A stretch of DNA of 47,862 bases from a phage. The DNA lies in the sequence record OZ346152.1, one strand, 5' to 3'. The translations under genes and the position numbers were made by a program. Each line of letters starts with the position of its first letter. The first letter of the stretch is position 1. The notes beneath the pieces were generated by a model. It made no database searches and had not been told where the DNA came from. It saw only the letters and a list, made by a program, of their open reading frames with translations. Below, one piece after another: positions 6,191-42,940 of the stretch.

Positions 6191-6209
6191 GTTTAACAAA
6201 AAGTGCTAT
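6191..6209 (+). promoter_or_regulatory. box-motif copy in reverse orientation (GTTTAACAAAAAGTGCTAT), orphan
   Basis: Lies between the 5383 ORF and the capsid terminator/RBS; no matching -10 on either strand. Confidence 0.3.
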
Positions 6210-6255: not shown

Positions 6256-7227
6256 ATGGCTAAAAAATATGATGAACTAGATGCTACGATTGTAGCGAAT
6301 CATTTGCAGATTCAGGGTGTTAAGTCCGACGCTTCTGATATGGGTATTTGGACCGCTCAAGAGCTACACAAGATCCGCTCTACCGCATACGAGAAAGAGT
6401 ATCCGGCAGGTTCCGCGCTTCGCGTATTCCCTGTAACAAACGAGCTTTCTGATACTGATAAGACTTTCGAGTATCAGACTTTTGATAAGGTTGGCTACGC
6501 GAAAATTATCGCCGACTACACCGATGATCTGCCGACCGTGGACGCGCTGATGACTTCTGAGTTTGGCAAAGTGTTCCGCCTGGGTAACGCTTATCTGATC
6601 TCCATTGATGAGATTAAAGCAGGTCAGCGAACTGGCAAGAGCCTGTCAACTCGCAAGGCTAACGCTGCGCAAAATGCACATGATCAGTTGATTAACTTCC
6701 TGGTGTTCAAAGGTTCCAAGCCTCATAAAATCGTTTCCGTTTTCAATCACCCTAACCTTACGAAAATTGTTTCTAAAGGGTGGATGAGCCAGGACGGCAA
6801 CACCAAGTTCCCGGAAGTGGCAAGCGATGAACTGGAGGCTGCAATCGAAACGATCGAGGAAGTAACCAAAGGTCAGCACCGCGCGACTAACATCCTGATC
6901 CCGCCGTCCATGCGTAAAGTCCTGACGGTTCGAATGGAAAATACCACTGAAAGTTATCTTGAATACTTCCAGAAGCAAAACGGCGGTATCACTATCGACT
7001 CTATCGCAGAGCTTGAGGATATTGACGGCAAAGGTACGAAAGGTTGCTTGGTTTACGAAAAAGATCCAATGAACATGAGCATTGAGATTCCAGAAGCGTT
7101 TAACATGCTTCCGGCGCAGCCAAAAGACCTACATTTCAAGGTTCCTTGCACTTCCAAGTGTACTGGCCTTACGATTTATCGTCCGTTTACGATGGTGCTT
7201 ATTACTGGCTTGAAAAAAGCTGGGTAA
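6256..7227 (+). CDS. major capsid protein (putative)
   Basis: 323 aa; GGAGG RBS; flanked by strong terminators, i.e. an abundant monocistronic unit; head-module position. Confidence 0.55.
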   Translation: MAKKYDELDATIVANHLQIQGVKSDASDMGIWTAQELHKIRSTAYEKEYPAGSALRVFPVTNELSDTDKTFEYQTFDKVGYAKIIADYTDDLPTVDALMTSEFGKVFRLGNAYLISIDEIKAGQRTGKSLSTRKANAAQNAHDQLINFLVFKGSKPHKIVSVFNHPNLTKIVSKGWMSQDGNTKFPEVASDELEAAIETIEEVTKGQHRATNILIPPSMRKVLTVRMENTTESYLEYFQKQNGGITIDSIAELEDIDGKGTKGCLVYEKDPMNMSIEIPEAFNMLPAQPKDLHFKVPCTSKCTGLTIYRPFTMVLITGLKKAG

Positions 7228-9944: not shown

Positions 9945-9964
9945 CTTTTAACAAAAAGTGCTAT
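9945..9964 (+). promoter_or_regulatory. box-motif copy in reverse orientation (CTTTTAACAAAAAGTGCTAT) abutting the SD of the tail chaperone gene
   Basis: Perfect box core; on the minus strand N18 then TAGATT would point leftward into the terminator. Confidence 0.3.
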
Positions 9965-14512: not shown

Positions 14513-15243
14513 TGATTAGTGCAAAAATTAAACTTGAAATAATGCAGCACGTTAAAGAGGAATACCCTAAAGAGGCTTGCGGCGTCATAACTCAAAAGTC
14601 ACGGGTACAGAAATATCACCGCATAACCAACGTGCATGACGATCCAGAAAATCATTTTGAAATGGATGCCGTAGAATACGCTGAATCGCTCGACAAAGGC
14701 GAATTAATCGCGGTGGTACATTCCCATTGCGGTGACGGTGCTAGTACGATACCGAGCGCGCACGACTCGTGTATGTGCGATGAAATGGGTGTATCGTGGA
14801 TTATAGTTTCATGGCCCGAAGGTGATATGAGAATTGTCGAGCCGCAGGAGAGGCCGCTTATCGGTCGCCCGTGGTCGCTGGGGTCGTTCGATTGCTGGGG
14901 TCTTATCATGGCATGGCATAAACAGCACGGAATAGTATTGAATGACTTCCGAAAGCCTTACGAGTGGTGGAAGTCAGAATATGGTGAAAATCTTTACCAG
15001 GATAATTATTTGAAAGAGGGATTTGTTGAAACTAACGAGCCTCCAAAACCTGGTGATATGGTGATTATGCAGCTATCATCGCCAGTCTGGAATCATGCGG
15101 GGATTTATTTGGGTAACAATCAGCTATTACATCATGCGTTTGGAAAGCTATCTCGCATCGACTTGTATTCTGGATGGTATCAGGAGCACACTGTAAAAAT
15201 TTGCCGACATAAGGATCTGAAATATGACATTGAAAGTAATTAA
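14512..15243 (+). CDS. tail tip assembly protein (gpK-like, MPN/JAB plus NlpC/P60)
   Basis: HSHCGDG metal-site-like motif and DCWGL Cys-peptidase motif; TAATG-coupled ATG at 14512 (track start 14410 runs into the upstream gene). Confidence 0.6.
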   Translation: MISAKIKLEIMQHVKEEYPKEACGVITQKSRVQKYHRITNVHDDPENHFEMDAVEYAESLDKGELIAVVHSHCGDGASTIPSAHDSCMCDEMGVSWIIVSWPEGDMRIVEPQERPLIGRPWSLGSFDCWGLIMAWHKQHGIVLNDFRKPYEWWKSEYGENLYQDNYLKEGFVETNEPPKPGDMVIMQLSSPVWNHAGIYLGNNQLLHHAFGKLSRIDLYSGWYQEHTVKICRHKDLKYDIESN

Positions 15244-23460: not shown

Positions 23461-23491
23461 AAAAAGCCCCGCATGTGCGGGGCATTTTTTT
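23461..23491. terminator. bidirectional rho-independent terminator
   Basis: GCCCCGCA-TG-TGCGGGGC hairpin flanked by an A-run and a T-run, between convergent ssb and fibre genes. Confidence 0.7.
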
Positions 23492-25868
23492 AGTTAAGAG
23501 TAGTAGGATTGTTGATTAGCTTTGACAGTAAATCTTTTAATTCTGCAACCTCATTTTCAAGTTTGCTTATGCGATCATCACTTTCACGGCATACTTTCAC
23601 AAGCAATCCAGTAACAGCACCATAATCAACAGATAAGAATCTTTCCTCGCCAACTAACTGATTTCCATCCTTAGTTGGACCAGCAAGATCCGTGTACTGA
23701 GTGAATCCGCCAACAGCTTCCGGTATTGCCTCCATTACTTCTTGAGCAATTACCCCAGCATAAGGTAAACCATTCTCCTTAAGCGTGTAAGTGTATCCGC
23801 TCATTTTGCGCAATGATTCAGTCGCGTTTTCAATCTCCTCAATGTTGTCCTTAAGATCTCTGTCAGATACTTGATTGAATGCCGTCGCATTTACAGGGCC
23901 GTTAACTTGAAGATGCTTTGAGTTATCTTTATTTAACTGACCGTAAAAAATCCACCCAGGGCCGTTATCGAAAGCCCACTCAATAACAGACGGTCTATCT
24001 GACCCGTTCCCCCACAATTTGAAACTTGCAGGGTGTGATGAGTTTCCGTCGTTCTGCATATTGAAATACTTACCACTCGGTCGGTCTATCTCTAAACTCG
24101 CCGCCTGTACATATGCTTTTCCCGCAAAGTCTTTCGTACCTAACACAACCCCAGAATCGATAAGTTCAACCTTGCTTTTCGTTATGTCATTTAGAAATAA
24201 CGCACTCGTTCCAGTATCTTTACCTAAAAACCAAAGACGTGTGCCTGCGGAGTTGTACCCTGTTACGTGCAGCGGTTGGTTGTTTGTTGATGCTGTTCCG
24301 TCGATACGAAAACCGCCATTAGCGGTTGTAACTTTAATGCTTGGTACGGTCATAGCGAATGTGCCACTGGCCGCAAGGCCGTTATACGCGATCAGCTTGT
24401 TGTCATACGAAAGGCCGCCATCATCACGCAGCTGTAGCACTTTCTGCGACGTGCGGTTGCGAATGCCAACATCCGTGCCTCCTACAAACATTTCGACGAT
24501 TCGATCACCGCTTTTAGCTCTCACGTAAGCGTTATATTCCGGCGACGACCCCGCGTTATACAACTCGTACCATTTAGACCAGATGCCAGTAGTCGCGTTA
24601 CTAAGCCATCGCATAAAGCGACGCCCGCTATTGTATCCTGTAAACGTCTGTATGCAGCTTTTAGGATCGTTAGCGCCAGTGCGCTGAACAAGTAGACAAC
24701 CTGCTTCCTGAACGGGATAATTACGCTCCGGCGTTGCGTTGGCAGATAAGCTAGTATAATAAAATCCAGCCTTATCACCCTGAAGGATGTTAAGGTCTTC
24801 ACTAACCAACGTTGCCCGGCGCTCATGCATGACCTGAAGGTTTGCGCGCGCTCCCTGGTCGTTCGATGCTCCTGTCCCGCCGTCACCGATCGCCACGTCA
24901 CCATTAGCACCCAGCTTCGCCAGTTCAATGGCACCCACATTTCCAGATGAGCCGTTAATCGCGGCATTGTTTCCAGCGAAAACCTTCACGCGAGAGGTCA
25001 GGTAGTCAACGTTAAACGCAAAAAATGTGTCACCAGCACCCCCGCACACCCCAGGACCATATTTGAACGGCGTCATCTCGCCCGAAGGGAACTGAGAAAT
25101 ATCATCAACGCGCCAAAAGCCGCCTTTGACCGAATCGCGCAACCGCTTGAGCATATCCCTTACGCCAGTCGGCGCAGGTAATGTTACACCCGCATACGGC
25201 ACTCTATTTTGAGCTTCTGAACTTTCAGCAGCAGCCGCTGCGCGATCAGCCTCTGTTTTAGCCTTGTTTGCACTGTTTGCAGCATTAGTTTCCGATGTTT
25301 TAGCGTTTGTTTCAGAAGTCTTCGCGGCACTAGCCGAGTTAGCAGCATTAGTTTCCGATGTTTTAGCCGCATTCTTACTTGCATTAGCTGCATTTTCAGA
25401 TGCTTTGGCATTAGTTTCCGATGTTTTAGCGTTTGTTTCAGAAGTCTTTGCAGCACTAGCGCTCTGTTTTGCTGATTCAGCGCCTTGTTTCACCTGATTC
25501 ACAAGATCTTTCAACCCATCAAGATCGAAATCTCTAAAAAATTCAAGCGCGTCAGCAATCTCCGTTTCCTTGCTTTGATAGTAACGCAGTGTTTCCGCTA
25601 CGTCCTGCGCCAGCCCGTCAACCGTCAACGAGTCATGAAGCAAGATCAGGTAATTTGTCTTCTGGACTACCGCGCCGCCAGTAGTAATTGCGCGAATGCT
25701 TGTATCGCTAATCACCTCTGTAATCACAGCAGCTTGCAAAGGTTGAGTAAGAAAGAAAATAGTTGCACCTGGGCGAATCAATGTTAATTGCTCACGCCAT
25801 TTTGTATCGTAACCAGTTACATAACCTTGCGCGTCCATAGACGCTTGGCCTTGTCTGTAAATCGCCAT
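23490..25868 (-). CDS. side tail fibre with C-terminal intramolecular chaperone (S74-like) domain
   Basis: 792 aa from ATG at 25868 with AGGAGG RBS (track start 25892 is GTG); N-terminal SETNAK-type repeats; C-terminal [24 protein letters not shown]. Confidence 0.75.
25282..25460. repeat. imperfect tandem repeat, period about 63 bp, three copies, coding
   Basis: Near-identical blocks gcattagtttccgatgttttagc.. at 25282, 25345 and 25408 encoding the fibre's TSETNAK repeats. Confidence 0.7.
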
Positions 25869-25885
25869 TTGTAAAATCCTCCTAA

Positions 25886-25905
25886 ATAGCACTTTTTGCT
25901 AATGA
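25886..25905 (+). promoter_or_regulatory. box-motif copy (variant ATAGCACTTTTTGCTAATGA), orphan, abutting the side-fibre SD on the opposite strand
   Basis: Diverged proximal half and no -10 at N18 on the plus strand. Confidence 0.3.
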
Positions 25906-25974: not shown

Positions 25975-26904
25975 TTATAGCAGTGATTCGGGCTTGTAGA
26001 GTTTTCTTTCTACGCCCTGTTTAAAATTATCGTTAACAGGCATCATTATGTCAAGACCTCTTTCCTCTGCCGCGATTATCACATCACGATCATCTTTCCG
26101 GCAGACTACGCGCATTCTTCTTTCTCCTTTATATCTATGCGCAACCATTTCAAGATTTGAAGGAGTAAAACAGGCCCACACCTCTTGACCAGTTGATAAA
26201 TGAACGTGTTGGGAGTCAACCCAATCAAGGCACAAATAGATCGTCTTATCCGTGCTACCTGTTTTAACAACAGATCCGCGCGTGTAGTCGCGAGCTAAAA
26301 ACCAATCCTTTCCATCCTCATCAATGAAAAGCACGTTACACATTTCATCATCCAGCCCGTCATCATGCACCAGGTGACAAGGTAGCGCGTGAATGTATCG
26401 ACCATCCTTGACGCCGCAATCATAATGACAATCTTCCGGCGGATATATCCCCTCATAAACGCTTAAAGGTGTGCGATCGAATTTTAATGTTTTTGCCATC
26501 ACTTTTTCGCAGCATTCATGACTTGCCTGTTTCCCGAACGAGTAGCCAGAAGAACGTGAAGCGCGTTTGTTTGCTCTGATCCTGTAATCTTGTGGCACTT
26601 TGCCGAGGAAGCGGCCCAAAATGTTGATGGCCTCGCTGTAAGGTTCGCCAGTCAATTTCATTAACCAACCGATTCCAGTGTCGTTACCGCACACGTTGCA
26701 GATCGCGCCGCCGTCGCCCTCTTCGTTTAGCTTATCAGTCCATCTAAAACGATCCTTACCGCCGCAGTGTGGGCAAGGCTGATGCTTTTTGTTGAAAACA
26801 TCGCTATGCAGTCCGCAAATGCTTTGTAATGCTTCACGCCATAACCCCTTCATATATGGCAAAACGTCTTCTTTCTGATAGGTCATAAAGTTTTCAGTAT
26901 TCAT
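25975..26904 (-). CDS. DNA primase (putative, zinc-ribbon type)
   Basis: 309 aa from ATG at 26904 (track start 26931 is TTG); CPHCGG..CNVCG zinc ribbon near the N-terminus; adjacent to the helicase. Confidence 0.5.
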   Translation of the reverse strand: MNTENFMTYQKEDVLPYMKGLWREALQSICGLHSDVFNKKHQPCPHCGGKDRFRWTDKLNEEGDGGAICNVCGNDTGIGWLMKLTGEPYSEAINILGRFLGKVPQDYRIRANKRASRSSGYSFGKQASHECCEKVMAKTLKFDRTPLSVYEGIYPPEDCHYDCGVKDGRYIHALPCHLVHDDGLDDEMCNVLFIDEDGKDWFLARDYTRGSVVKTGSTDKTIYLCLDWVDSQHVHLSTGQEVWACFTPSNLEMVAHRYKGERRMRVVCRKDDRDVIIAAEERGLDIMMPVNDNFKQGVERKLYKPESLL

Positions 26905-26912
26905 AGCAACCT

Positions 26913-26951
26913 CAATAAAAAAGCCCAGCAAATATTATCATTTCGCTGGGC
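26913..26951 (-). terminator. rho-independent terminator (minus strand)
   Basis: GCCCAGC..GCTGGGC hairpin followed on the minus strand by TTTTTTATT. Confidence 0.55.
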
Positions 26952-26958
26952 CTTATCA

Positions 26959-27435
26959 TTAGCTATTCGTGCTGTTATCACCTTTGTAGAATCGTCCGCC
27001 TGGTTCGTAGTCTGAATTTTTGACTACGCGCAACATTTCGTATTTGTCGCAACGGGTAGTAAGGGGCTTACCGTTAGAGTCAAACCGCAGGTCTGGACGA
27101 CAAAACGAGGCGCGGTATCCTTTGCATCCATTATATTTGTAGTCGTTATGCACTTTTTGTGCTCCGGCGGCTGAAATCATACCACGCTTTCGCCATTGGT
27201 TAACTACTTGCTGAGATACGCGCAGACGTCGAGCCATAGCAGGAACACCGCCGTAATACTCGATCAGAATGTCAAGGCGAGATTTCAGGCTTGCTTTTAC
27301 CTCATCTCGCAGGATAAGAAATCCGGTTCGGTGTTTTCGTGGCTTTTTGTCTTTACCTCGTCGCGTTCCGTTGTTACCGTTAATAGTGCGCTTGTCGATC
27401 TCACCCGTAGACACTGCAATTCGTGCATCTTTCAT
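26959..27435 (-). CDS. HTH DNA-binding protein (Cro/XRE-like helix flanked by basic and Cys-containing segments)
   Basis: 158 aa; MARRLRVSQQVVNQWRKRG helix-turn-helix-like segment; N-terminal KKPRKHR; GAGGTG RBS. Confidence 0.4.
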   Translation of the reverse strand: MKDARIAVSTGEIDKRTINGNNGTRRGKDKKPRKHRTGFLILRDEVKASLKSRLDILIEYYGGVPAMARRLRVSQQVVNQWRKRGMISAAGAQKVHNDYKYNGCKGYRASFCRPDLRFDSNGKPLTTRCDKYEMLRVVKNSDYEPGGRFYKGDNSTNS

Positions 27436-27446
27436 CTAGTCACCTC

Positions 27447-27490
27447 ATAGCATTTTTTGTTAAAACAGTTTATTGTAATGAGTCTATTAT
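27447..27490 (+). promoter_or_regulatory. box-type promoter unit (box, N18, TATTAT) for the helicase operon
   Basis: ATAGCATTTTTTGTTAAAAC at 27447-27466, 18 nt, TATTAT at 27485-27490, ATG at 27523. Confidence 0.55.
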
Positions 27491-27522
27491 ATACTCCAAA
27501 TGGCATTTTTTAAAGGTTTAAG

Positions 27523-29520
27523 ATGATTCCAAATATCGAAAAACAAATATCGGCGTTAGGCGAAGCAGTAATAAAAAGCATCCAAGAGCGATTCACGGTT
27601 GGCAATATAGTGCCTTATCCTTATCAGTGCGTTGCGTATGCCGAGATCGCAAAGCGCATGAAAAACTATGAACATCCTTTCTTTGTTAAGGCTTCTGTGT
27701 CGGCTGGCAAAACATTGATGTTTGCGATGGTTGCGGCGCAATGCCGCAAAATGGGATTGAAAATGATGGTGCTTGCTCGCCAGGCTGAAATTGTTGATCA
27801 GGATTCGGAAGAGATCAGCAATCTTGGCGTGCCAAACTCAATCTATTGCGCCGGACTGAAAACAAAAAGCGCATACTTTCCGATCGTAGTCGGTTCTGAG
27901 GGCACTGTAGTAAACGGATTGTTTAAGTCGTTAGGTGATTATGTTCCGCACGTTATCGGTATTGATGAATGTCACCAGGTGGATTGGGAGGATCTCGCGG
28001 ACGCGATAGAAAATAATGAATCTTACCAGCAGATGACCACTAAGAAGGATTTGCCTGTACTGATTGGAGAAGAACAGCAATTTGATTCCAATGGCGATCC
28101 AATGTTCGGAACAGGGCGCACACAGTACACCGTAATAATCATGGAAATGATGCGCAGGTGTCGCGAGGCATACGGGCACGAATTGCGAATATTCGGTATG
28201 ACTGGATCTGAGTTTCGCGGCGTGGTTCCAATACTGGTTGAAGATAAGAACAAAAAGGGATTCTGGCGTGAGCAGGTGACTAACATAGACACAAACTACT
28301 TAATCAAATTTGGTTCGGTAGTGCCAACAAATTTCGGCGACGTAGGCGACCTGGGGTATGACCTTTCAGAGTTCGAAGCCAGTAGCGAGGATGGCGTTTC
28401 AGACTTTGACTCTAAAACATTGCGCAAGATGGAAGAAAAGATCCATCAAGACGCAACAATGACACAGAAAATCATGGCTAAAGTCCATGAGATATGCAAA
28501 GACAGGAACGGAGTTTTAGTTACATGCGCAGGGGAAAGGCACTGCAAGGAGGCCGCCGCCGCACTGCCGCCAGGCGTTGAATACAGGATCATAACTGGCA
28601 AGACTGGAGATAATCAGCGTAAAGAGTGGCTAAGGGAGGCATACGAGGGAAAAGTAAAATACATCTTCCAGGTACAGGCGCTTACCACTGGCGTTAACGT
28701 TCCGTTTTGGGATACTTCGGTAATACTGAGAAAGATAGGATCTCTAACATTGCTTATCCAGCTTTTGGGGCGCGGTATGCGACTGCTTAAGCAATGGCAC
28801 ATTGAGCAGGGATTCAAGAAAAAAGATCATCTTGTATTGGATTTTGCAGGCACTATGGATGAGTTAGGGGATTTGTATTTCGATCCAATTCTTGAGCAAG
28901 CGCAATTTCAAAAGAGATTTACAAACGGGAAAGAGCCTAAGACTTGCCCGATATGTGGAACACTAAACAGCTTTTACGCTCGCCGATGTATGCACGTAGA
29001 CGATAACGGGAAACGATGCGAGCATTTTTGGACTTACAGAATTTGCGAGGACCAGGTAGATCCGAGAACGAAAAAGATAATCAAGCGCGGTTGCGGAACA
29101 AAAAACGACGTGGTGGCGAGGGTGTGCCGTTGTTGCGATATTTCTCTTGTCGATCCTAACGAGAAGTTAAGCGGCAAGCACTACACCAAAAACGATTGGT
29201 GCAACGTTAAATCTTTCCGCGTTGATATGACGAAAAACCAAAAAGGAATTGTTTTTTGCTATGAGCTTGAGGCCAACGGCGACACGTTCAAGGCATACGA
29301 AAGATTTTTCCCTGAGTCAGAAAGCAACATTTGCCGGACGATATGGAGAAAAATAGCATTGCAGCACATACCGGATCGTAAGATTGCTGGTATGGTGGCG
29401 AGCTATAGAAATGCGCGTAAAATAATGTCATACGCTCATCACATCATGCCGCCTGTACGCGTAACGCATCGCAAAAACGGCAAAGGTGAGGATAACATTG
29501 CAAAACGGGAGTTTGTTTAA
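27523..29520 (+). CDS. SF2 helicase (DExH-type) with C-terminal zinc-ribbon region
   Basis: Walker A SAGKT, motif II IGIDECHQ, Cys-rich C-terminus (CPICG..C..C). Confidence 0.75.
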   Translation: MIPNIEKQISALGEAVIKSIQERFTVGNIVPYPYQCVAYAEIAKRMKNYEHPFFVKASVSAGKTLMFAMVAAQCRKMGLKMMVLARQAEIVDQDSEEISNLGVPNSIYCAGLKTKSAYFPIVVGSEGTVVNGLFKSLGDYVPHVIGIDECHQVDWEDLADAIENNESYQQMTTKKDLPVLIGEEQQFDSNGDPMFGTGRTQYTVIIMEMMRRCREAYGHELRIFGMTGSEFRGVVPILVEDKNKKGFWREQVTNIDTNYLIKFGSVVPTNFGDVGDLGYDLSEFEASSEDGVSDFDSKTLRKMEEKIHQDATMTQKIMAKVHEICKDRNGVLVTCAGERHCKEAAAALPPGVEYRIITGKTGDNQRKEWLREAYEGKVKYIFQVQALTTGVNVPFWDTSVILRKIGSLTLLIQLLGRGMRLLKQWHIEQGFKKKDHLVLDFAGTMDELGDLYFDPILEQAQFQKRFTNGKEPKTCPICGTLNSFYARRCMHVDDNGKRCEHFWTYRICEDQVDPRTKKIIKRGCGTKNDVVARVCRCCDISLVDPNEKLSGKHYTKNDWCNVKSFRVDMTKNQKGIVFCYELEANGDTFKAYERFFPESESNICRTIWRKIALQHIPDRKIAGMVASYRNARKIMSYAHHIMPPVRVTHRKNGKGEDNIAKREFV

Positions 29521-29939
29521 TGGCTATAACTGATAAAGGAGATTATCTTGAGTTTTACGAAAGAGATCCAACCGACACAAGAAGGGAGGTTAATCACCAG
29601 ATAGATAGTTTTCAGTGGTTGACTTATGCTCATCCTTACTTGCTGGCGTGGCATACGGTAAACGAGAATGAGAAGTCTAAAGTAACGGCTATGATTGATC
29701 AGCAGTCCGGCTTGGTTAAGGGAGTAAGCGATTTCATCATCCTGATTGGTTTAAACGGAAAATACCCCTTTGCAGCGATTGAGATCAAACGAGTGAATAA
29801 ATCAGGCAAGGGGAAAGCATCACCAGTCAGCGATGAGCAAAAGGCTTTTTTGCGTCGCGTTCGCAGCTTAGGAGGATTCGCTGCGGTAGCCTACGGATTC
29901 AATCAGTTTAAGTTGGCTATTGAATACATGCTTAAATAG
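29520..29939 (+). CDS. VRR-NUC domain nuclease
   Basis: 139 aa; D..E.K core (SDFIIL..AIEIKR); TAATG-coupled to the helicase; TAG stop inside a box. Confidence 0.55.
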   Translation: MAITDKGDYLEFYERDPTDTRREVNHQIDSFQWLTYAHPYLLAWHTVNENEKSKVTAMIDQQSGLVKGVSDFIILIGLNGKYPFAAIEIKRVNKSGKGKASPVSDEQKAFLRRVRSLGGFAAVAYGFNQFKLAIEYMLK

Positions 29940-30018: not shown

Positions 30019-30744
30019 ATGGCTAAAGATATTTTAGATAAAGACACCCATGACGCATTCGTTAGCTTTGAGCAGTTGGAGAGAGAAACGTTTATAGGGA
30101 ATGCCCTTGCAACTGGAGGCCATTACCAGGCAGTAAAGCCAAATCAATATTATAAGGTAAGCGGCAACCGATACGCTGGAAGCACCACGCCTGACGTTGT
30201 GCGCGATATGTGGAGCACGCCTCAAGAGATCGTGGAGTGGATGGAATCAGAATTTGGTGAATACGATCTCGACGCGGCAGCAAGCCAGGAAAACGCAGTT
30301 TGCGAGAAGTTCTATAGCAAGGAAACAAACTGCTTAAAGCGTTGGTGGGGTAGCAACAAGCACGTATGGCTTAACCCGCCGTACAGCAACCCAACTCCAT
30401 TTATCAAGAAAGCAATTGAGCAAATGGAGCACAACAACCAAATTGATGTTTTGTTGCCAGCCGACAACTCTACAGCATGGTTTTATGAGGCACAGAAAAA
30501 CGCGGCTGAAATCATCTGGATCACTGGCGAGGTTTACGAAGAGGGTGGAGTAGAATACTCCCGCACCGGAAGAATAGCCTTTGTGTCTGGATTGACTGGC
30601 GAGCCTGTGCAGGGCAACAATAAGGGAAGCGTGATTTTTGTCATGCGCAAACTTAAAGAAGGCGAGGAGCAGAAAACGCGATACGTTAAGATCAGCGATA
30701 TTTGCCCTTCTGTAACCGAACGCCGCGCGCGCAAACGGAGCTAA
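30019..30744 (+). CDS. dam: DNA N6-adenine methyltransferase (phage Dam-type)
   Basis: 241 aa; catalytic NPPY motif (WLNPPYS); GGAGA RBS. Confidence 0.7.
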   Translation: MAKDILDKDTHDAFVSFEQLERETFIGNALATGGHYQAVKPNQYYKVSGNRYAGSTTPDVVRDMWSTPQEIVEWMESEFGEYDLDAAASQENAVCEKFYSKETNCLKRWWGSNKHVWLNPPYSNPTPFIKKAIEQMEHNNQIDVLLPADNSTAWFYEAQKNAAEIIWITGEVYEEGGVEYSRTGRIAFVSGLTGEPVQGNNKGSVIFVMRKLKEGEEQKTRYVKISDICPSVTERRARKRS

Positions 30745-31006: not shown

Positions 31007-31049
31007 TAGCACTTTTTGTTAAAACGCCCGGCCTAGTGTCGGGCATAAT
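31006..31049 (+). promoter_or_regulatory. box-type promoter unit (box, N18 hairpin GCCCGGCCTAGTGTCGGG, CATAAT)
   Basis: The whole 44-bp unit is nearly identical, in inverted orientation, to the unit at 34223-34266. Confidence 0.55.
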
Positions 31050-31081: not shown

Positions 31082-31261
31082 ATGGTGGTATTCGATAAAC
31101 GCGCTTTTAATCTTGCTCAAGAAGTAGCAAAAGGTTCAGTAGAGGGCGGTTCAAAGGAAGGATTCCAGTTTGATTGGGGCATCGCGATGTTTTTACTGAA
31201 AGTTGCATACGGTCACGCGCCAATTGAACAAGCGGAGACATATTATAAGCATGAAGGTTGA
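31082..31261 (+). CDS. hypothetical small protein (59 aa, below the track cutoff)
   Basis: ATG with GAGGAAA RBS about 30 nt downstream of the box promoter; ORF translated by hand. Confidence 0.3.
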   Translation: MVVFDKRAFNLAQEVAKGSVEGGSKEGFQFDWGIAMFLLKVAYGHAPIEQAETYYKHEG

Positions 31262-31493
31262 GCAAGGAAGAGATGCAGTATGGAATCACGCTAAAGAATG
31301 CGGAATAGCCGACGATATAAAGAAGATCGCGCAATACTTTGATATTGCAGATGTGAGCATAATTAGCGGCGACAAGATGACTTTCCTCAAGGAAAGGCCG
31401 CGAAAAATGGTAAGAGTTCCAGCAGTTCCAACAAAAATTGATTTCAAAGAGGCAATGGCTAAAATCCGAGAGCCTCGCAAATATTATAAATGA
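31251..31493 (+). CDS. hypothetical protein
   Basis: 80 aa from the first ATG of track ORF 31203..31493; overlaps the preceding small ORF. Confidence 0.3.
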   Translation: MKVEQGRDAVWNHAKECGIADDIKKIAQYFDIADVSIISGDKMTFLKERPRKMVRVPAVPTKIDFKEAMAKIREPRKYYK

Positions 31494-31587: not shown

Positions 31588-32703
31588 ATGAAAAATGTAA
31601 AAATTACAGATGAGCAATTCAAGATCGAACGGGCGGCAGGTAAGACATATAAACAGATCGCTCAAGAGTACGGAATGAATGTGAGAAGCGTCGAGCGTCG
31701 CGCGGCGCGTCTTGCAAAGCAAGGGCAGTTATCGACCATCGGGGCGCCTGGTTTTGGTGTTCATGGTGAGTCAGTAATGACTGACAAAGAAGGAAATATA
31801 ATCCTCAAGTGGACCAAAACCAGCAAGGATAAAGAGCAATTAGAGGCACTGATGCGCGCAGCAATGGAGGCATTTAGCGAGGAAGTGCCGCGATTAGATC
31901 CAGTTCCATTGCAGGAGCGTAACTATAATGAAACGCTTTCATTGTATCCGATCTTTGACATGCACTTAGGCGCTATGGCCCATAAGCACGAATGCGGCGA
32001 AAATTGGGATACTGCGACGGCAGAGCGCGTTATGAATAACTTTATCGACTATGCTTTGATGTGCGCACCGGACAGCGAAAAGGCTGTTATCCTGATTGGT
32101 GGCGATATGCTGCATAGCGACGGCCTGGAGGCGGTGACACCTGCAAGCGGTCACGTACTTGATCAAGATAGCCGATATGCAAAATTGGTTTACGTTGCAA
32201 TACGTGCAGTGCGCCGCGCAATTAATAAAATGCTGTTAAAGCATAAACATGTTGAGGTCCAGGTCGTAGAGGGTAATCACGACCAATCAGGAATGATTTG
32301 GCTACGCGCAGCAATGGCGGCAGCATATGAGAACGAGCCGCGCGTTTACGTTGATGTTTCTCCTCGCGTTGTTCACCACACGCAATACGGAAAAACTTTC
32401 CTTGCGTACCATCACGGGCACACAGTGCGCAAACCTGAGACTTTGCTAATGATGTGCGCGTCAGATTGGCGGGAGGACTTCGGAAACTCAAAAACTATGT
32501 ATGCGCACGTAGGGCACTGGCATCACCAGACTGTGACGGAAACGTCGCTTGGCATCGTTGAGGTGCATAGCACCCTGGCGGCAAAAGACGCATACGCCGC
32601 GCGCGGTGGCTGGAGATCTCGACGCCGTGCAGCGGTTATCATTTACGACAAAGAGCATGGAGAAGTGGGGCGATTTGTTCACTATCCAGAAATGATGAAT
32701 TGA
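31588..32703 (+). CDS. metallophosphoesterase (calcineurin / SbcD-Mre11-like) with N-terminal sigma-region-4-like HTH
   Basis: Motifs DMH, GGDMLHSD, GNHD, GHWHH; N-terminal TYKQIAQEYGMNVRSVERRAARLAKQ; first ATG of the frame (track start 31438 is TTG). Confidence 0.55.
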   Translation: MKNVKITDEQFKIERAAGKTYKQIAQEYGMNVRSVERRAARLAKQGQLSTIGAPGFGVHGESVMTDKEGNIILKWTKTSKDKEQLEALMRAAMEAFSEEVPRLDPVPLQERNYNETLSLYPIFDMHLGAMAHKHECGENWDTATAERVMNNFIDYALMCAPDSEKAVILIGGDMLHSDGLEAVTPASGHVLDQDSRYAKLVYVAIRAVRRAINKMLLKHKHVEVQVVEGNHDQSGMIWLRAAMAAAYENEPRVYVDVSPRVVHHTQYGKTFLAYHHGHTVRKPETLLMMCASDWREDFGNSKTMYAHVGHWHHQTVTETSLGIVEVHSTLAAKDAYAARGGWRSRRRAAVIIYDKEHGEVGRFVHYPEMMN

Positions 32704-32749
32704 TGAATTTTTATTTAAATCAATGACAAATTAAATCAAAAACTTGCAA

Positions 32750-32779
32750 AGGGGCGGCGTTTGTCGCCTCTTTTTTTTG
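32750..32779 (+). terminator. rho-independent terminator (moderate)
   Basis: AGGGGCG..CGCCTCT stem with one G-T pair followed by an 8-nt T-run. Confidence 0.45.
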
Positions 32780-32848
32780 TTTAATTTTTTACCATGTAAG
32801 TTTATCATTCGGTCAATATATTGACTTTAATTAATATGGAGAATAAAA

Positions 32849-34186: not shown

Positions 34187-34222
34187 AATTTTACCTTTTG
34201 GTTGTTTCGTTTCGATGAAACA

Positions 34223-34266
34223 AATATACCCGACACTAGGCCGGGCGTTTTAACAAAAAATGCTAT
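34223..34266 (-). promoter_or_regulatory. box-type promoter unit (box, N18 hairpin, TATATT), inverted copy of the 31006 unit
   Basis: Minus strand ATAGCATTTTTTGTTAAAAC, GCCCGGCCTAGTGTCGGG, TATATT. Confidence 0.55.
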
Positions 34267-34457
34267 TCCATACGCTTTACCGTAACCAGTAATACACCAT
34301 CATCATTGCATAAAACATGTTCAGTGGTGCTAAAAGCGCGCATATCTGAATAAAGTAGCGTAAGTAAAGCATGAATAAAATCCTCATGTGATATTGAATT
34401 TACGGCGCAGTGCTTCAAGATCTTGTCTATTAGCTTTTGCCTGGAACAATTCATCAT
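34263..34457 (-). CDS. hypothetical protein (overlaps the 3' end of the 34384 gene out of frame)
   Basis: 64 aa; GGGGAG RBS; TAG stop inside the box; real status uncertain. Confidence 0.25.
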   Translation of the reverse strand: MMNCSRQKLIDKILKHCAVNSISHEDFIHALLTLLYSDMRAFSTTEHVLCNDDGVLLVTVKRME

Positions 34458-38945: not shown

Positions 38946-38976
38946 CTTTAAATCCTCGTTTGTTGTCGATGGGTGT

Positions 38977-39020
38977 AATATACCATTCAGGAGCACATCG
39001 TTTTTAACAAAAAGTGCTAT
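38977..39020 (-). promoter_or_regulatory. box-type promoter unit (box, N18, TATATT)
   Basis: Minus strand ATAGCACTTTTTGTTAAAAA, 18 nt, TATATT, then ..CATCGACAAC..GAGGATTT, ATG. Confidence 0.55.
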
Positions 39021-39307
39021 TCAACAACTTTTCCAGTTAAAGAGATAAGTTGCCTTGTAATCTTGTGGCGTCGATACTTACGCGCAACAACCGGAAGGTT
39101 TTCACCGCTTTGATGACCAAAACAGATCGGCAATTCACCTTCAAGCGAACGGAAGCCGCCAAATTCAAGATCCCGCACTGGCTTCGCGCGCCAGGCTTCA
39201 ATAAATCCGCGTTCGTCACGAGTGATATAGCGGTATATGTTCGGGAGGGGCAATTGTATCCCCTCAAAATCCACGGTATCGGTATAGCTATAAAACTTAG
39301 AACTCAT
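39017..39307 (-). CDS. hypothetical protein
   Basis: 96 aa from the ATG overlapping the upstream small-ORF stop; TAG stop inside the box. Confidence 0.4.
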   Translation of the reverse strand: MSSKFYSYTDTVDFEGIQLPLPNIYRYITRDERGFIEAWRAKPVRDLEFGGFRSLEGELPICFGHQSGENLPVVARKYRRHKITRQLISLTGKVVE

Positions 39308-39449: not shown

Positions 39450-39482
39450 TTTCAAATCCTCACATTCGTTGTCGATGCGTGT

Positions 39483-39526
39483 AATGTACAGGAATGCGAG
39501 GATTGAGTTTTAACAAAAAGTGCTAT
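39483..39526 (-). promoter_or_regulatory. box-type promoter unit (box, N18, TACATT)
   Basis: Perfect consensus box on the minus strand; downstream leader GTACATTACACGCATCGACAACGAA resembles those at 38977 and 40787. Confidence 0.55.
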
Positions 39527-39790
39527 TTAGTCCAGAAATTCGATTTCACGCTCGCCAGTTAACGGATCTACAAGCCAGAATCCGAGAGGTTCGCCATAAA
39601 CACCGCCATAGAATCCAAGCGCCGCCAGATCTTCACCTTTAACGAATACCAGGTTCCCGCTACGGCTTACGTGAGACACGTTAACGATAACCGGAAATGT
39701 GCGATCCTTAAATGCGGGCCGCAGGGCGTAACATCCGTTATTAAGCAAACGTGCTTTGCGCTTAACTGGAATAGGTGCATTAATTTTCAT
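39527..39790 (-). CDS. hypothetical protein
   Basis: 87 aa; AAGGAG RBS; TAA stop merges into the box. Confidence 0.4.
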   Translation of the reverse strand: MKINAPIPVKRKARLLNNGCYALRPAFKDRTFPVIVNVSHVSRSGNLVFVKGEDLAALGFYGGVYGEPLGFWLVDPLTGEREIEFLD

Positions 39791-40752: not shown

Positions 40753-40786
40753 TGCTATCTCCTGAGCGGTTCGTTTTGATGTGTGT

Positions 40787-40830
40787 AATGTACCCGATCA
40801 GACGGCCTGAGTTTTAACAAAAAGTGCTAT
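40787..40830 (-). promoter_or_regulatory. box-type promoter unit (perfect box, N18, TACATT) for the leftward early block
   Basis: Minus strand ATAGCACTTTTTGTTAAAAC, TCAGGCCGTCTGATCGGG, TACATT, 34 nt before the ATG at 40752. Confidence 0.55.
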
Positions 40831-40860
40831 TTGACGGTTAGCACCAGGATTGTGATCGAA

Positions 40861-41909: not shown

Positions 41910-42448
41910 TGAAAAAATACACTTTCGAACTGTGGGGCAAGAAGTACGAATTAATCACCAGCAAGCCGATTGTTATCGTTGATCTGGATGGCACACTATC
42001 GGACGGATCGCATCGCTTGCACTTGTTGCCAACTGAAAACTTGCACCTTACCGAATCGTGGAGCGAATTTAACAGGGCCGCCGCCGGAGATTCGCCGATT
42101 AAAAGCACGATCGCAGTTATTAACGGTTTGTGGGTGTCAGGATTTGCCATCGTCATCTTGACCGGACGCAGCGACGAGGTGCGCTACGAAACCTGCAAAT
42201 GGCTTAACGAGAACGGCGTGAAGTTTGACGAAATCATCATGCGCCGCCAGGAGGACAACCGAAAGGATACGGTTATTAAAGAAGAAGCCTTGCGCGCTAT
42301 TGGCCTGGACAACATTGTTTGCGCCTTTGACGATTCGCCGAACGTGGTTAAGCACTTCCGCAGCTTGGGGATCACAACCTATCAGGTCACGGAATACGAC
42401 AAGCCACACGCTCACCTGCAATCTCACGGCGTGGAGTGTTTAAAATGA
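41909..42448 (+). CDS. HAD-superfamily phosphatase (putative nucleotide or polynucleotide phosphatase)
   Basis: Motif I IVIVDLDGTL (DxDGT), motif II ILTGR, C-terminal FDD; TAATG-coupled start. Confidence 0.55.
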   Translation: MKKYTFELWGKKYELITSKPIVIVDLDGTLSDGSHRLHLLPTENLHLTESWSEFNRAAAGDSPIKSTIAVINGLWVSGFAIVILTGRSDEVRYETCKWLNENGVKFDEIIMRRQEDNRKDTVIKEEALRAIGLDNIVCAFDDSPNVVKHFRSLGITTYQVTEYDKPHAHLQSHGVECLK

Positions 42449-42606
42449 CTTGGTTGCTTTTAATCTTTGTCACAAGTTACAACTCCGCAGCTATTGAGTC
42501 GCAGGAGTTCCACGGCGAATCAAGATGCCAGGAAGCGCGAAAGCAAGTTATTCTCCACATGTCAGATAGCGGGAAGGATGTAACAGCGTTATGCGTTCGT
42601 AAATAG
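42445..42606 (+). CDS. hypothetical small protein with hydrophobic N-terminus (53 aa, below the track cutoff)
   Basis: ATGA-coupled to the phosphatase stop; ends AAA-TAG inside the box at 42603. Confidence 0.25.
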   Translation: MTWLLLIFVTSYNSAAIESQEFHGESRCQEARKQVILHMSDSGKDVTALCVRK

Positions 42607-42645
42607 CACTTTTGCAAAAACAGATTATCGGGCTTGCGGTATAGT
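42603..42645 (+). promoter_or_regulatory. box-type promoter unit (box variant ATAGCACTTTTGCAAAAAC, N18, TATAGT)
   Basis: 19-nt box, 18 nt, TATAGT at 42640-42645; GGGCTT..AAGCCC dyad spans the -10; ATG at 42677. Confidence 0.5.
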
Positions 42646-42676
42646 AAGCCCATCAACAACGAACGAGGATTAAATC

Positions 42677-42940
42677 ATGGCTAACAAGATCGAGTTTTTT
42701 AAAGCGGTAGACATTATCGACGGCGCGCCTAGCTTCTTCGCTATCCATTCTATTGACGGCAAGGATATTGGGTACAACGTCATTCGTCGAGATGGAATCT
42801 CAAAACTTAGCGACCTGGTAGGTTTTGTTGTGTCAAACGGGAAATGTGCATGGCGCGATTCGCCACGAGAGCCGCGCCGCCGCGACATGATTGATCCTGA
42901 ATTACTTTACACGCTGGTAGTTGAAGGAGAAAATAAATGA
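42677..42940 (+). CDS. hypothetical protein
   Basis: 87 aa; GAGGA RBS. Confidence 0.4.
   Translation: MANKIEFFKAVDIIDGAPSFFAIHSIDGKDIGYNVIRRDGISKLSDLVGFVVSNGKCAWRDSPREPRRRDMIDPELLYTLVVEGENK

Follow-up and report, generated by a model that had tools for sequence, protein, structure and literature searches.

The phage DNA analysed here (sequence record OZ346152.1, a stretch of 47,862 nucleotides referred to below as the window) contains, at 31588..32703 on the plus strand, a stop-free coding sequence of 371 codons plus stop for a helix-turn-helix (HTH)-metallophosphoesterase. The gene is the orthologue of open reading frame (ORF) 16 of phage T1 and belongs to family 704 of the PHROG database. 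Its product is composed of two modules, a predicted HTH resembling the LuxR/sigma-region-4 type and an intact binuclear metallophosphoesterase, probably of the Mn2+/Mg2+ type, which are connected by a hairpin/helix linker. We propose, with moderate confidence, that the protein is a Mn-dependent, HTH-tethered DNA nuclease of phage DNA metabolism. This interpretation is the best supported one because the predicted fold neighbourhood is biased towards nucleases, the motifs are Mre11-like, and the DNA-binding module is ancestral and accompanied by DNA-metabolism genes. In addition, the complete binuclear site is strictly conserved, which indicates that catalysis is under selection. In the proposed mechanism, the HTH would tether the protein to duplex DNA, sequence-specifically or not, and the phosphoesterase core would cut DNA phosphodiester bonds as an exo- or endonuclease. 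The protein may thereby process replication or recombination intermediates, or break down host DNA for nucleotide salvage.

A complete and conserved metal-binding site

The five motifs of the calcineurin-like superfamily (PF00149 clan), DxH, GD, GNH[DE], H and GHxH, were all found in the protein. They correspond to D124-M-H126 (motif I; D124/H126 at 31957-31965), G171-GDMLHSD178 (motif II; 32098-32121), G229-NHD232 (motif III; 32272-32283), A273-YHHGH278 (motif IV, with HHGH at 32410-32421) and G309-HWHH313 (motif V; 32512-32526), all encoded on the plus strand within the metallophosphoesterase core (residues 113-365, 31924..32682). A family-specific loop, TPxSGHxLDxDxR, occupies residues 184-196 of the same core.

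Conservation was evaluated in 143 near-full-length representatives sharing 33-55% identity. D124, H126, D173, N230, H231 and H276 are conserved in 100% of these, and four further motif positions in 90% or more (H312, 99%; H176, 97%; H310, 95%; H278, 90%). Several positions specific to the family are near-invariant as well, namely T184 (100%), L191, D192 and R196 (96%), W75 (95%) and G69 (93%). A preliminary description of this DNA had recognised a full Mre11/SbcD-type signature and had made its interpretation depend on the metal-binding residues being conserved in homologues. Every motif it quoted was located, and chance is a poor explanation for them, as the metal ligands are kept at 95-100% across the 143 relatives.

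Over its full length, the protein matches phrog_704 ('DNA repair exonuclease') with an E-value of 1.7e-148, residues 5-370 aligning to profile positions 3-389 of 390. Pfam models perform far less well on the whole protein, with two sub-threshold matches, Sigma70_r4_2 at 18.5 bits (cutoff 25.7) and Metallophos at 17.2 bits (cutoff 21.5). Metallophos was matched at E <= 0.01 in just 23 of 102 family members, and the gathering threshold of PF00149 is missed because the divergence of the family exceeds what the Pfam model can capture. The family has no Pfam entry of its own.

The longest ORF of the gene begins at TTG 31438, and RefSeq relatives (tonnikala gp08, 398 aa) are annotated from GTG 31507, 27 codons upstream of ATG 31588. 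We retained ATG 31588 as the start, since the N-termini of homologues from other genera coincide with it.

An ancestral N-terminal helix-turn-helix

The structure of the protein was predicted with AlphaFold2. A first model, built from 27 close homologues, had a predicted local distance difference test (pLDDT) score of 76.5 and gave an undiscriminating fold ranking; it was replaced by a final model based on an alignment of 102 diverse sequences, with a mean pLDDT of 92.9 and a predicted template modelling score of 0.81. The model begins with a three-helix HTH at residues 8-44 (31609..31719, plus strand; helices 8-16, 21-27 and 32-44), for which block-mean pLDDT values are 91-95 across residues 11-40. 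The segment TYKQIAQEYGMNVRSVERRAARLAKQ, residues 20-45, falls largely within it, and the recognition helix is VRSVERRAARLAK. This is followed by a linker (31753..31884, plus strand) made up of a beta-hairpin, residues 56-80, and a long helix, residues 82-99; the conserved G69 and W75 lie in the hairpin. The length of the linker segment is almost constant across the representatives (median 58 aa).

LuxR-type HTHs belong to the same fold class as sigma region 4, and matches to both were obtained. When the N-terminal 101 residues were scanned alone, Sigma70_r4_2 scored 20.9 bits (cutoff 25.7) and was accompanied by HTH_23 and HTH_28, all below the Pfam thresholds. The Sigma70_r4_2 match spans residues 17-41, with no sigma region 2 or 3, the rest of the protein being phosphoesterase. 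The N-terminus of the family profile aligns best, at sub-significant values, to LuxR-type HTHs (GerE, E 0.058; RhlR, E 0.14; DesR). Single members of the family match HTH_1, HTH_8, HTH_50, Sigma70_r4_2, GerE and other HTH families. Among the 102 members, GerE was matched in 4 (best E 2.4e-8) and Sigma70_r4_2 in 10 (best E 1.5e-9), the window protein itself remaining sub-threshold. The predicted tri-/tetra-helical pattern of the module resembles that of LuxR/GerE proteins and sigma-70 region 4, with the difference that it has no receiver or ligand domain and is fused to an enzyme.

The N-terminal 50 residues are weakly conserved, with a mean top-residue frequency of 0.27-0.43 against 0.5-0.7 in the core. 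Nevertheless, an iterative profile started from the first 55 residues of the window protein picked up the N-terminal segment in 136 of 144 representatives (E <= 1e-3), and judged by these sequence profiles the HTH is homologous throughout and ancestral in the family. The HTH assignment of the preliminary description agrees with both the predicted fold and the sub-threshold Pfam match. Its view that a DNA-binding module on a phosphoesterase is unusual does not hold, as the fusion is the rule in the PHROG 704 family.

The predicted core and its nuclease neighbours

Residues 113-365 form the beta-alpha-beta-alpha-beta sandwich typical of calcineurin-like phosphoesterases. A structure comparison with the AlphaFold2 model placed the predicted core closest to three nucleases, PolD-DP1, Mre11 and SbcD. 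No significant sequence match to PDB chains was found, either with the single sequence or with the family profile; the profile matches to solved structures ('Nuclease MPE', E 1.8; Mre11, E 4.5; and several HTHs) were all sub-significant.

The likeness to Mre11/SbcD consists of a metallophosphoesterase nuclease domain with Mre11-type motifs, and there is no significant sequence match. The alignment covers the catalytic domain only, 188 of the 362 residues of Mre11 (186-188 aligned for Mre11/SbcD). The last strand of the core comprises residues 358-365 and the protein ends 6 residues beyond it; therefore, there is no capping domain of the Mre11/SbcD type. The region that binds Rad50/SbcC is likewise missing, and the N-terminal HTH and hairpin/helix linker are present instead. 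The annotation of tonnikala, a 98%-identical phage with 83 annotated genes, includes neither Rad50 nor SbcC, and neither was found in any of the neighbourhoods examined in other lineages. We suggest that the protein would act without a partner of this type, its HTH and linker standing in for the capping and partner-binding domains.

DP1, the small subunit of archaeal PolD and a 3'-5' proofreading exonuclease (PDB 5IHE), shares 13% identity with the window protein. Its OB-fold and its DP2/PCNA-binding parts (PMC11795197) have no counterpart in the secondary structure of our model. A DP2 partner is absent from T1-like phages, in which no DNA polymerase is encoded, judging from the tonnikala annotation and the related gene content examined.

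Proteins of probably analogous function are found in mycobacteriophages of Cluster A. The A10ZJ24 protein Gp48, an orthologue of Bxb1 gp47, is made early; it breaks down linear, circular and genomic DNA in vitro, and in vivo it harms the DNA of the host (PMC12287305). Bxb1 gp47 is a recombination directionality factor (PMC1470463, PMC11795197). These phages have actinobacterial hosts, and the proteins, of about 255 aa and with motif I at residue 10, have no HTH or linker and share the superfamily alone with the window protein. Homology beyond that level was rejected: hhalign of the family profile against Bxb1 gp47 gave a probability of 8.4% over 87 columns, covering motifs III-V only. Being related at superfamily level only and lacking the HTH, the mycobacteriophage proteins support the idea that the window protein works like them, not that it is a member of their family. 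In the Bxb1 RefSeq record (NC_002656.1, 8876-9788), gp46 (141 nt) is labelled 'recombination directionality factor' and gp47 'metallo-phosphoesterase'; the gp46 label is probably an annotation slip.

A large family with contradictory names

By tblastn, the family was detected in 2,042 of 50,697 deposited phage records, 1,960 of them with at least 80% query coverage. The matched phages infect Escherichia, Klebsiella, Salmonella, Vibrio, Flavobacterium, Rhodobacter, Ruegeria, Yersinia, Pseudomonas and Rhizobium, among other hosts. An exhaustive HMMER scan of 1.84 billion cluster representatives (50% identity clusters) returned 4,604 clusters at E <= 1e-3 and 1,042 at E <= 1e-30. The family spans Drexlerviridae, where it is kept in 508 of 522 genomes, Jersey-like phages, some T7-like phages, lambdoid prophages, and phages of Vibrio, Rhizobium and Roseobacter. 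As the fusion is the rule throughout a catalogued family of this great size, it does not set the present phage apart. Against PHROG 704 and T1 ORF16, to which it corresponds over the full length and in synteny, the window protein shows no substantive difference.

The gene itself is thus ordinary, a routine member of a common, catalogued phage family and present in nearly every T1-like phage. Its interest lies in an annotation gap rather than in any peculiarity of the locus: more than 2,000 sequenced phages carry the family under contradictory names, and we found no experimental characterisation. Automatic database names include putative phosphoesterase, DNA repair exonuclease, DNA polymerase II small subunit, oxidoreductase, winged helix-turn-helix domain-containing protein and Rrf2 family regulator. 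Literature searches on T1, Drexlerviridae, phosphoesterase function, T1 host-DNA degradation and conserved promoter motifs returned no functional study of the family.

T1-like phages have classically been reported to degrade host DNA, T1 mutants affected in this process being assigned to gene 2.5, and the protein is a plausible candidate for this T1-type host-DNA degradation or for a replication-linked nuclease. Our literature search on T1 host-DNA degradation found nothing, and a preprint on phage-induced chromosome degradation deals with denA of T2, not with T1-like phages. An assignment of function would correct the annotation of thousands of genomes, and might explain in part how the notoriously aggressive T1-like phages take over the cell.

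Some records matching the family carry an unexpected host. Phages labelled 'Campylobacter phage' (host Campylobacter jejuni; for example A143) are T1-like and encode an 85%-identical protein; 18 such records were matched in the search with the nucleotide region and 60 in the protein search. They look like coliphages that are either mislabelled in host or present as contaminants.

Genomic context

The window is a nearly whole genome of a T1-like phage of the genus Warwickvirus and starts with the large terminase gene. Over 2.6 kb spanning the HTH-metallophosphoesterase gene, identity to the Escherichia phages JLBYU16, Poky, tonnikala and tiwna is 97-98.4%. Tonnikala is classified in Drexlerviridae, Tempevirinae, Warwickvirus, and the protein is 98-99.5% identical in other Warwickvirus phages.

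The gene lies in a block of replication and recombination functions. A primase gene (25975-26931, minus strand) is followed by a 158-aa Cro/YdaS-like regulator (26959-27435, minus strand), a SNF2-type helicase (27523-29520), a VRR-NUC nuclease (29520-29939) and a Dam methylase (30019-30744). The regulator matches phrog_2856 ('transcriptional regulator') at E 1.6e-72 and Cro/YdaS-like Pfam models, in agreement with the second HTH protein of the preliminary description. Three small ORFs of unknown function separate the Dam methylase from the HTH-metallophosphoesterase gene. Two such ORFs (31082-31261 and 31251-31493, plus strand; phrog_2180 and phrog_2817, equivalent to tonnikala gp06 and gp07) precede the gene in the same transcription unit. 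Downstream of it lie a terminator and then the holin, endolysin and spanin genes. The order in T1 is alike, with helicase, ORF21/VRR-NUC, Dam, small ORFs, ORF16 (ST16, 377 aa) and lysis genes. In T1 and some relatives, such as vB_Eco_mar001J1 and EC167, the gene and the holin gene are separated by an HNH homing endonuclease and/or a small ORF of the SH3-like type (T1 41956-42877); in the window, this interval (32704-32848) holds the terminator alone.

The boundaries of the transcription unit were defined by a predicted promoter and a terminator. The promoter (31007..31049, plus strand) is composed of an 18-nt box, TAGCACTTTTTGTTAAAA (31007-31024), a 19-nt spacer with a GC hairpin, and the -10-like hexamer CATAAT (31044-31049), and was assigned from box statistics and geometry. 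A strong intrinsic terminator at 32748..32783 (plus strand; 32748-32773 by a narrower delimitation), identified by a terminator scan and RNA folding, has an 11-bp GC-rich stem and a T-run; its folding energy is -17.9 kcal/mol (z -4.15), and 0 of 200 shuffled sequences were as stable. It closes the operon and parts the gene from the holin-endolysin-spanin cassette. With the box promoter before it and the terminator after it, the gene comes last in a transcription unit that belongs to the replication block. The nature of the neighbouring genes suggests that this would be an early or middle operon.

Outside Drexlerviridae, the surroundings of the gene vary considerably. The T7-like Pseudomonas phage MR4 encodes RNA and DNA polymerases of its own; here, the gene lies after exonuclease and endonuclease genes and before phosphatase, deoxynucleoside monophosphate (dNMP) kinase and ligase genes. 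In a published account (PMC13164509), the gene termed the exonuclease there is frequently followed by one for polynucleotide kinase or dNMP kinase. In lambdoid E. coli prophages, whose protein is 66% identical, cro and a DnaD-like organiser lie upstream of the gene, which is flanked by an antirepressor on one side and a DnaB-type helicase on the other. One metagenomic contig (L013) has PolA before the gene and a MazG-like gene and an endolysin gene after it. In Vibrio phage K367, it lies after an endonuclease gene and before endolysin and head genes, and in a further contig (L012) it is preceded by a lysozyme gene. The Jersey copy belongs to a small divergent island surrounded by tail genes, and in one contig the gene sits between portal and head genes. 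Across the neighbourhoods of eight lineages, no fixed partner gene was found in common, in particular no Rad50/SbcC. What the loci share is neighbours with functions in DNA metabolism and a place where the early/replication block ends.

A small MazG-like ORF with a weak match to PF18909 (dGTP_diPhyd_N) adjoins the family member in two unrelated metagenomic phages (L013, 8189-8626; P0295 contig, 6628-6957) and could be a recurrent nucleotide-metabolism neighbour.

A putative promoter box confined to Drexlerviridae

The box upstream of the operon recurs across the genome. Its consensus, TAGCAC-N5-TG(T/C)TAAAA, has 15 copies in the window at <=3 mismatches, compared with 0.08 expected. Boxes of 18 nt are located at 1567, 6191, 9946, 20728, 25887, 27448, 29937, 31007, 34248, 36410, 37084, 39002, 39508, 40812, 43922 and 45216. 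At least 12 copies are placed exactly 19 nt (18 nt in one case) from a -10-like hexamer, which is followed after 25-35 nt by a ribosome-binding site and start codon. This fixed geometry suggests that the box is the upstream half of a predicted promoter, centred near -40, a position too distant to serve as an ordinary sigma-70 -35 element. In T1, 19 copies (<=4 mismatches) show this geometry. One T1 box promoter lies directly after ORF16, and none is present at the corresponding position of the window.

The preliminary description had speculated that the HTH might be linked to this box. The box is genuine, but Jersey and MR4 contain one chance-level match each, and no copies were found in the 17-kb lambdoid prophage loci or in the other carriers examined. 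On this sequence comparison, the box is restricted to Drexlerviridae and does not accompany the HTH-metallophosphoesterase into other groups. The recognition helices are similar in the window (VRSVERRAARLAK), T1 (IRTVEARHAKLAK), Jersey (RRNVQLRSARLAK), MR4 (HRAVQIRKAALAK) and the prophage (KRNVERLGAKLAK), with R33, V35, R38 and L42-A43-K44 kept in all five. As carriers with such similar recognition helices are devoid of the box, the HTH was rejected as the box-binding factor and the proposed link is unsupported. Furthermore, the gene itself is under a box promoter, so the protein is not needed for the first round of transcription from boxes. A common DNA target of the similar HTHs was not found either: no 14-mer is common to the window, T1, Jersey and MR4, and the 13-mers in common do not exceed the level of chance. 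A more natural candidate for reading the box is the Cro-like regulator at the divergent helicase control region; host sigma-70 acting with unusual spacing is another. The earlier interpretation is partly supported. Its domain assignments stand, and the candidacy as a nuclease agrees with the function we favour; the rarity of the fusion and the connection to the box are not borne out.

Alternative functions

If the protein were a transcription regulator, its HTH would bind phage promoters, either at the box near -40 or at late or lysis genes, and the phosphoesterase would assist it or act as a sensor. The HTH is of a type found typically in activators, the box has a class-II-activator-like position with fixed spacing to the -10 element, and no RNA polymerase is encoded by the phage, judging from the tonnikala gene content examined. 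In addition, the gene lies directly before the Drexlerviridae lysis cassette, and 1-3 genes from an endolysin or lysozyme gene in three other lineages. However, the absence of the box from Jersey, MR4 and the prophage loci, the location of the gene under a box promoter and the dedicated Cro-like regulator at the divergent control region all speak against this function. The family also occurs in a T7-like phage with its own RNA polymerase and in a lambdoid replication module, and its catalytic residues are more conserved than its HTH. We therefore regard a regulator as distinctly unlikely. Alternatively, the HTH could bind an origin, with the phosphoesterase nicking DNA or serving, like a polymerase B-subunit, as a scaffold for helicase and primase; the protein would then be a replication-initiation or replisome-assembly factor. 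This seems rather unlikely, because polymerase B-subunits have lost the catalytic residues that the window protein keeps strictly, and the prophage already has a DnaD-like organiser (Lin1244_N). An origin-binding initiator was rejected, as no iterons, AT-rich tract or skew switch were detected in or beside the gene in the window or at the prophage locus.

An activity as a phosphodiesterase of small nucleotides rather than of DNA (cyclic or linear oligonucleotide immune signals, diadenosine tetraphosphate (Ap4A), dinucleotides or salvage intermediates) would make the protein an anti-defence or metabolic enzyme. This is unlikely in our view, since an HTH conserved in 94% of members would have no obvious role in such an enzyme and the top structural neighbours are nucleases. 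Membership of a defence or anti-defence family was rejected, with 0 families matched at E <= 1 among the PADLOC defence models, and a literature search on phage metallophosphoesterases with anti-defence roles returned no paper on the PHROG 704 family. A role as a Ser/Thr/Tyr phosphatase of host or phage proteins, comparable to lambda phosphatase (NinI), would fit the shared superfamily and metal-binding scaffold. We consider it highly improbable; the GDxHG/GDxVDRG/GNHE motifs and the close PPP fold that mark phosphatases of this type were not found in the window protein.

The DNA nuclease tethered by its HTH remains the function we favour. One extension of it, which we regard as speculative and unlikely, is that the HTH gives the nuclease an address. 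The family would in that case represent a widespread class of phage nucleases guided by their HTH, with cleavage at defined sites or structures either of the host chromosome or of intermediates in phage replication, and the rapid divergence of the HTH would track lineage-specific targets. A weaker variant of this idea is a bifunctional enzyme-regulator that would also control the switch to lysis and late genes, near which the gene often sits. If the nuclease were indeed addressed and the host chromosome its target, the enzyme would combine targeted host shut-off with nucleotide harvest.

Other predicted box promoters and repeats in the window

The divergent control region at 27436-27522 is compact. 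The Cro/YdaS-like regulator gene starts at 27435 (minus strand), directly next to the helicase box promoter (box 27448-27465; -10 TATTAT 27485-27490), and a minus-strand sigma-70-like promoter, TTTAAA-17-TATAAT (27514-27486), overlaps the helicase -10 element back to back. This layout suggests an autoregulatory switch.

Two box copies (6191-6208 and 9946-9963) are in minus orientation inside the plus-strand structural gene block. Viewed on the plus strand, the former is followed closely by a terminator-like hairpin and the gene for the major capsid protein, the latter by the tape-measure chaperone gene; their T1 counterparts are at 15068 and 18832. These copies could be antisense promoters or have another role.

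The leaders of four minus-strand box promoters (34206-34267, 38960-39021, 39466-39527 and 40770-40831) carry a common stretch, ...ACA(C/T)CCATCGACAACGAA-like, of repeat family D2, which is possibly a shared element of the 5' untranslated region. Periodic repeats of 21/42/63 nt (GCATTAGTTTCCGATGTTTTAGC...) were observed at 25282-25460, inside a large tail-fibre-like gene (23490-25892, minus strand).

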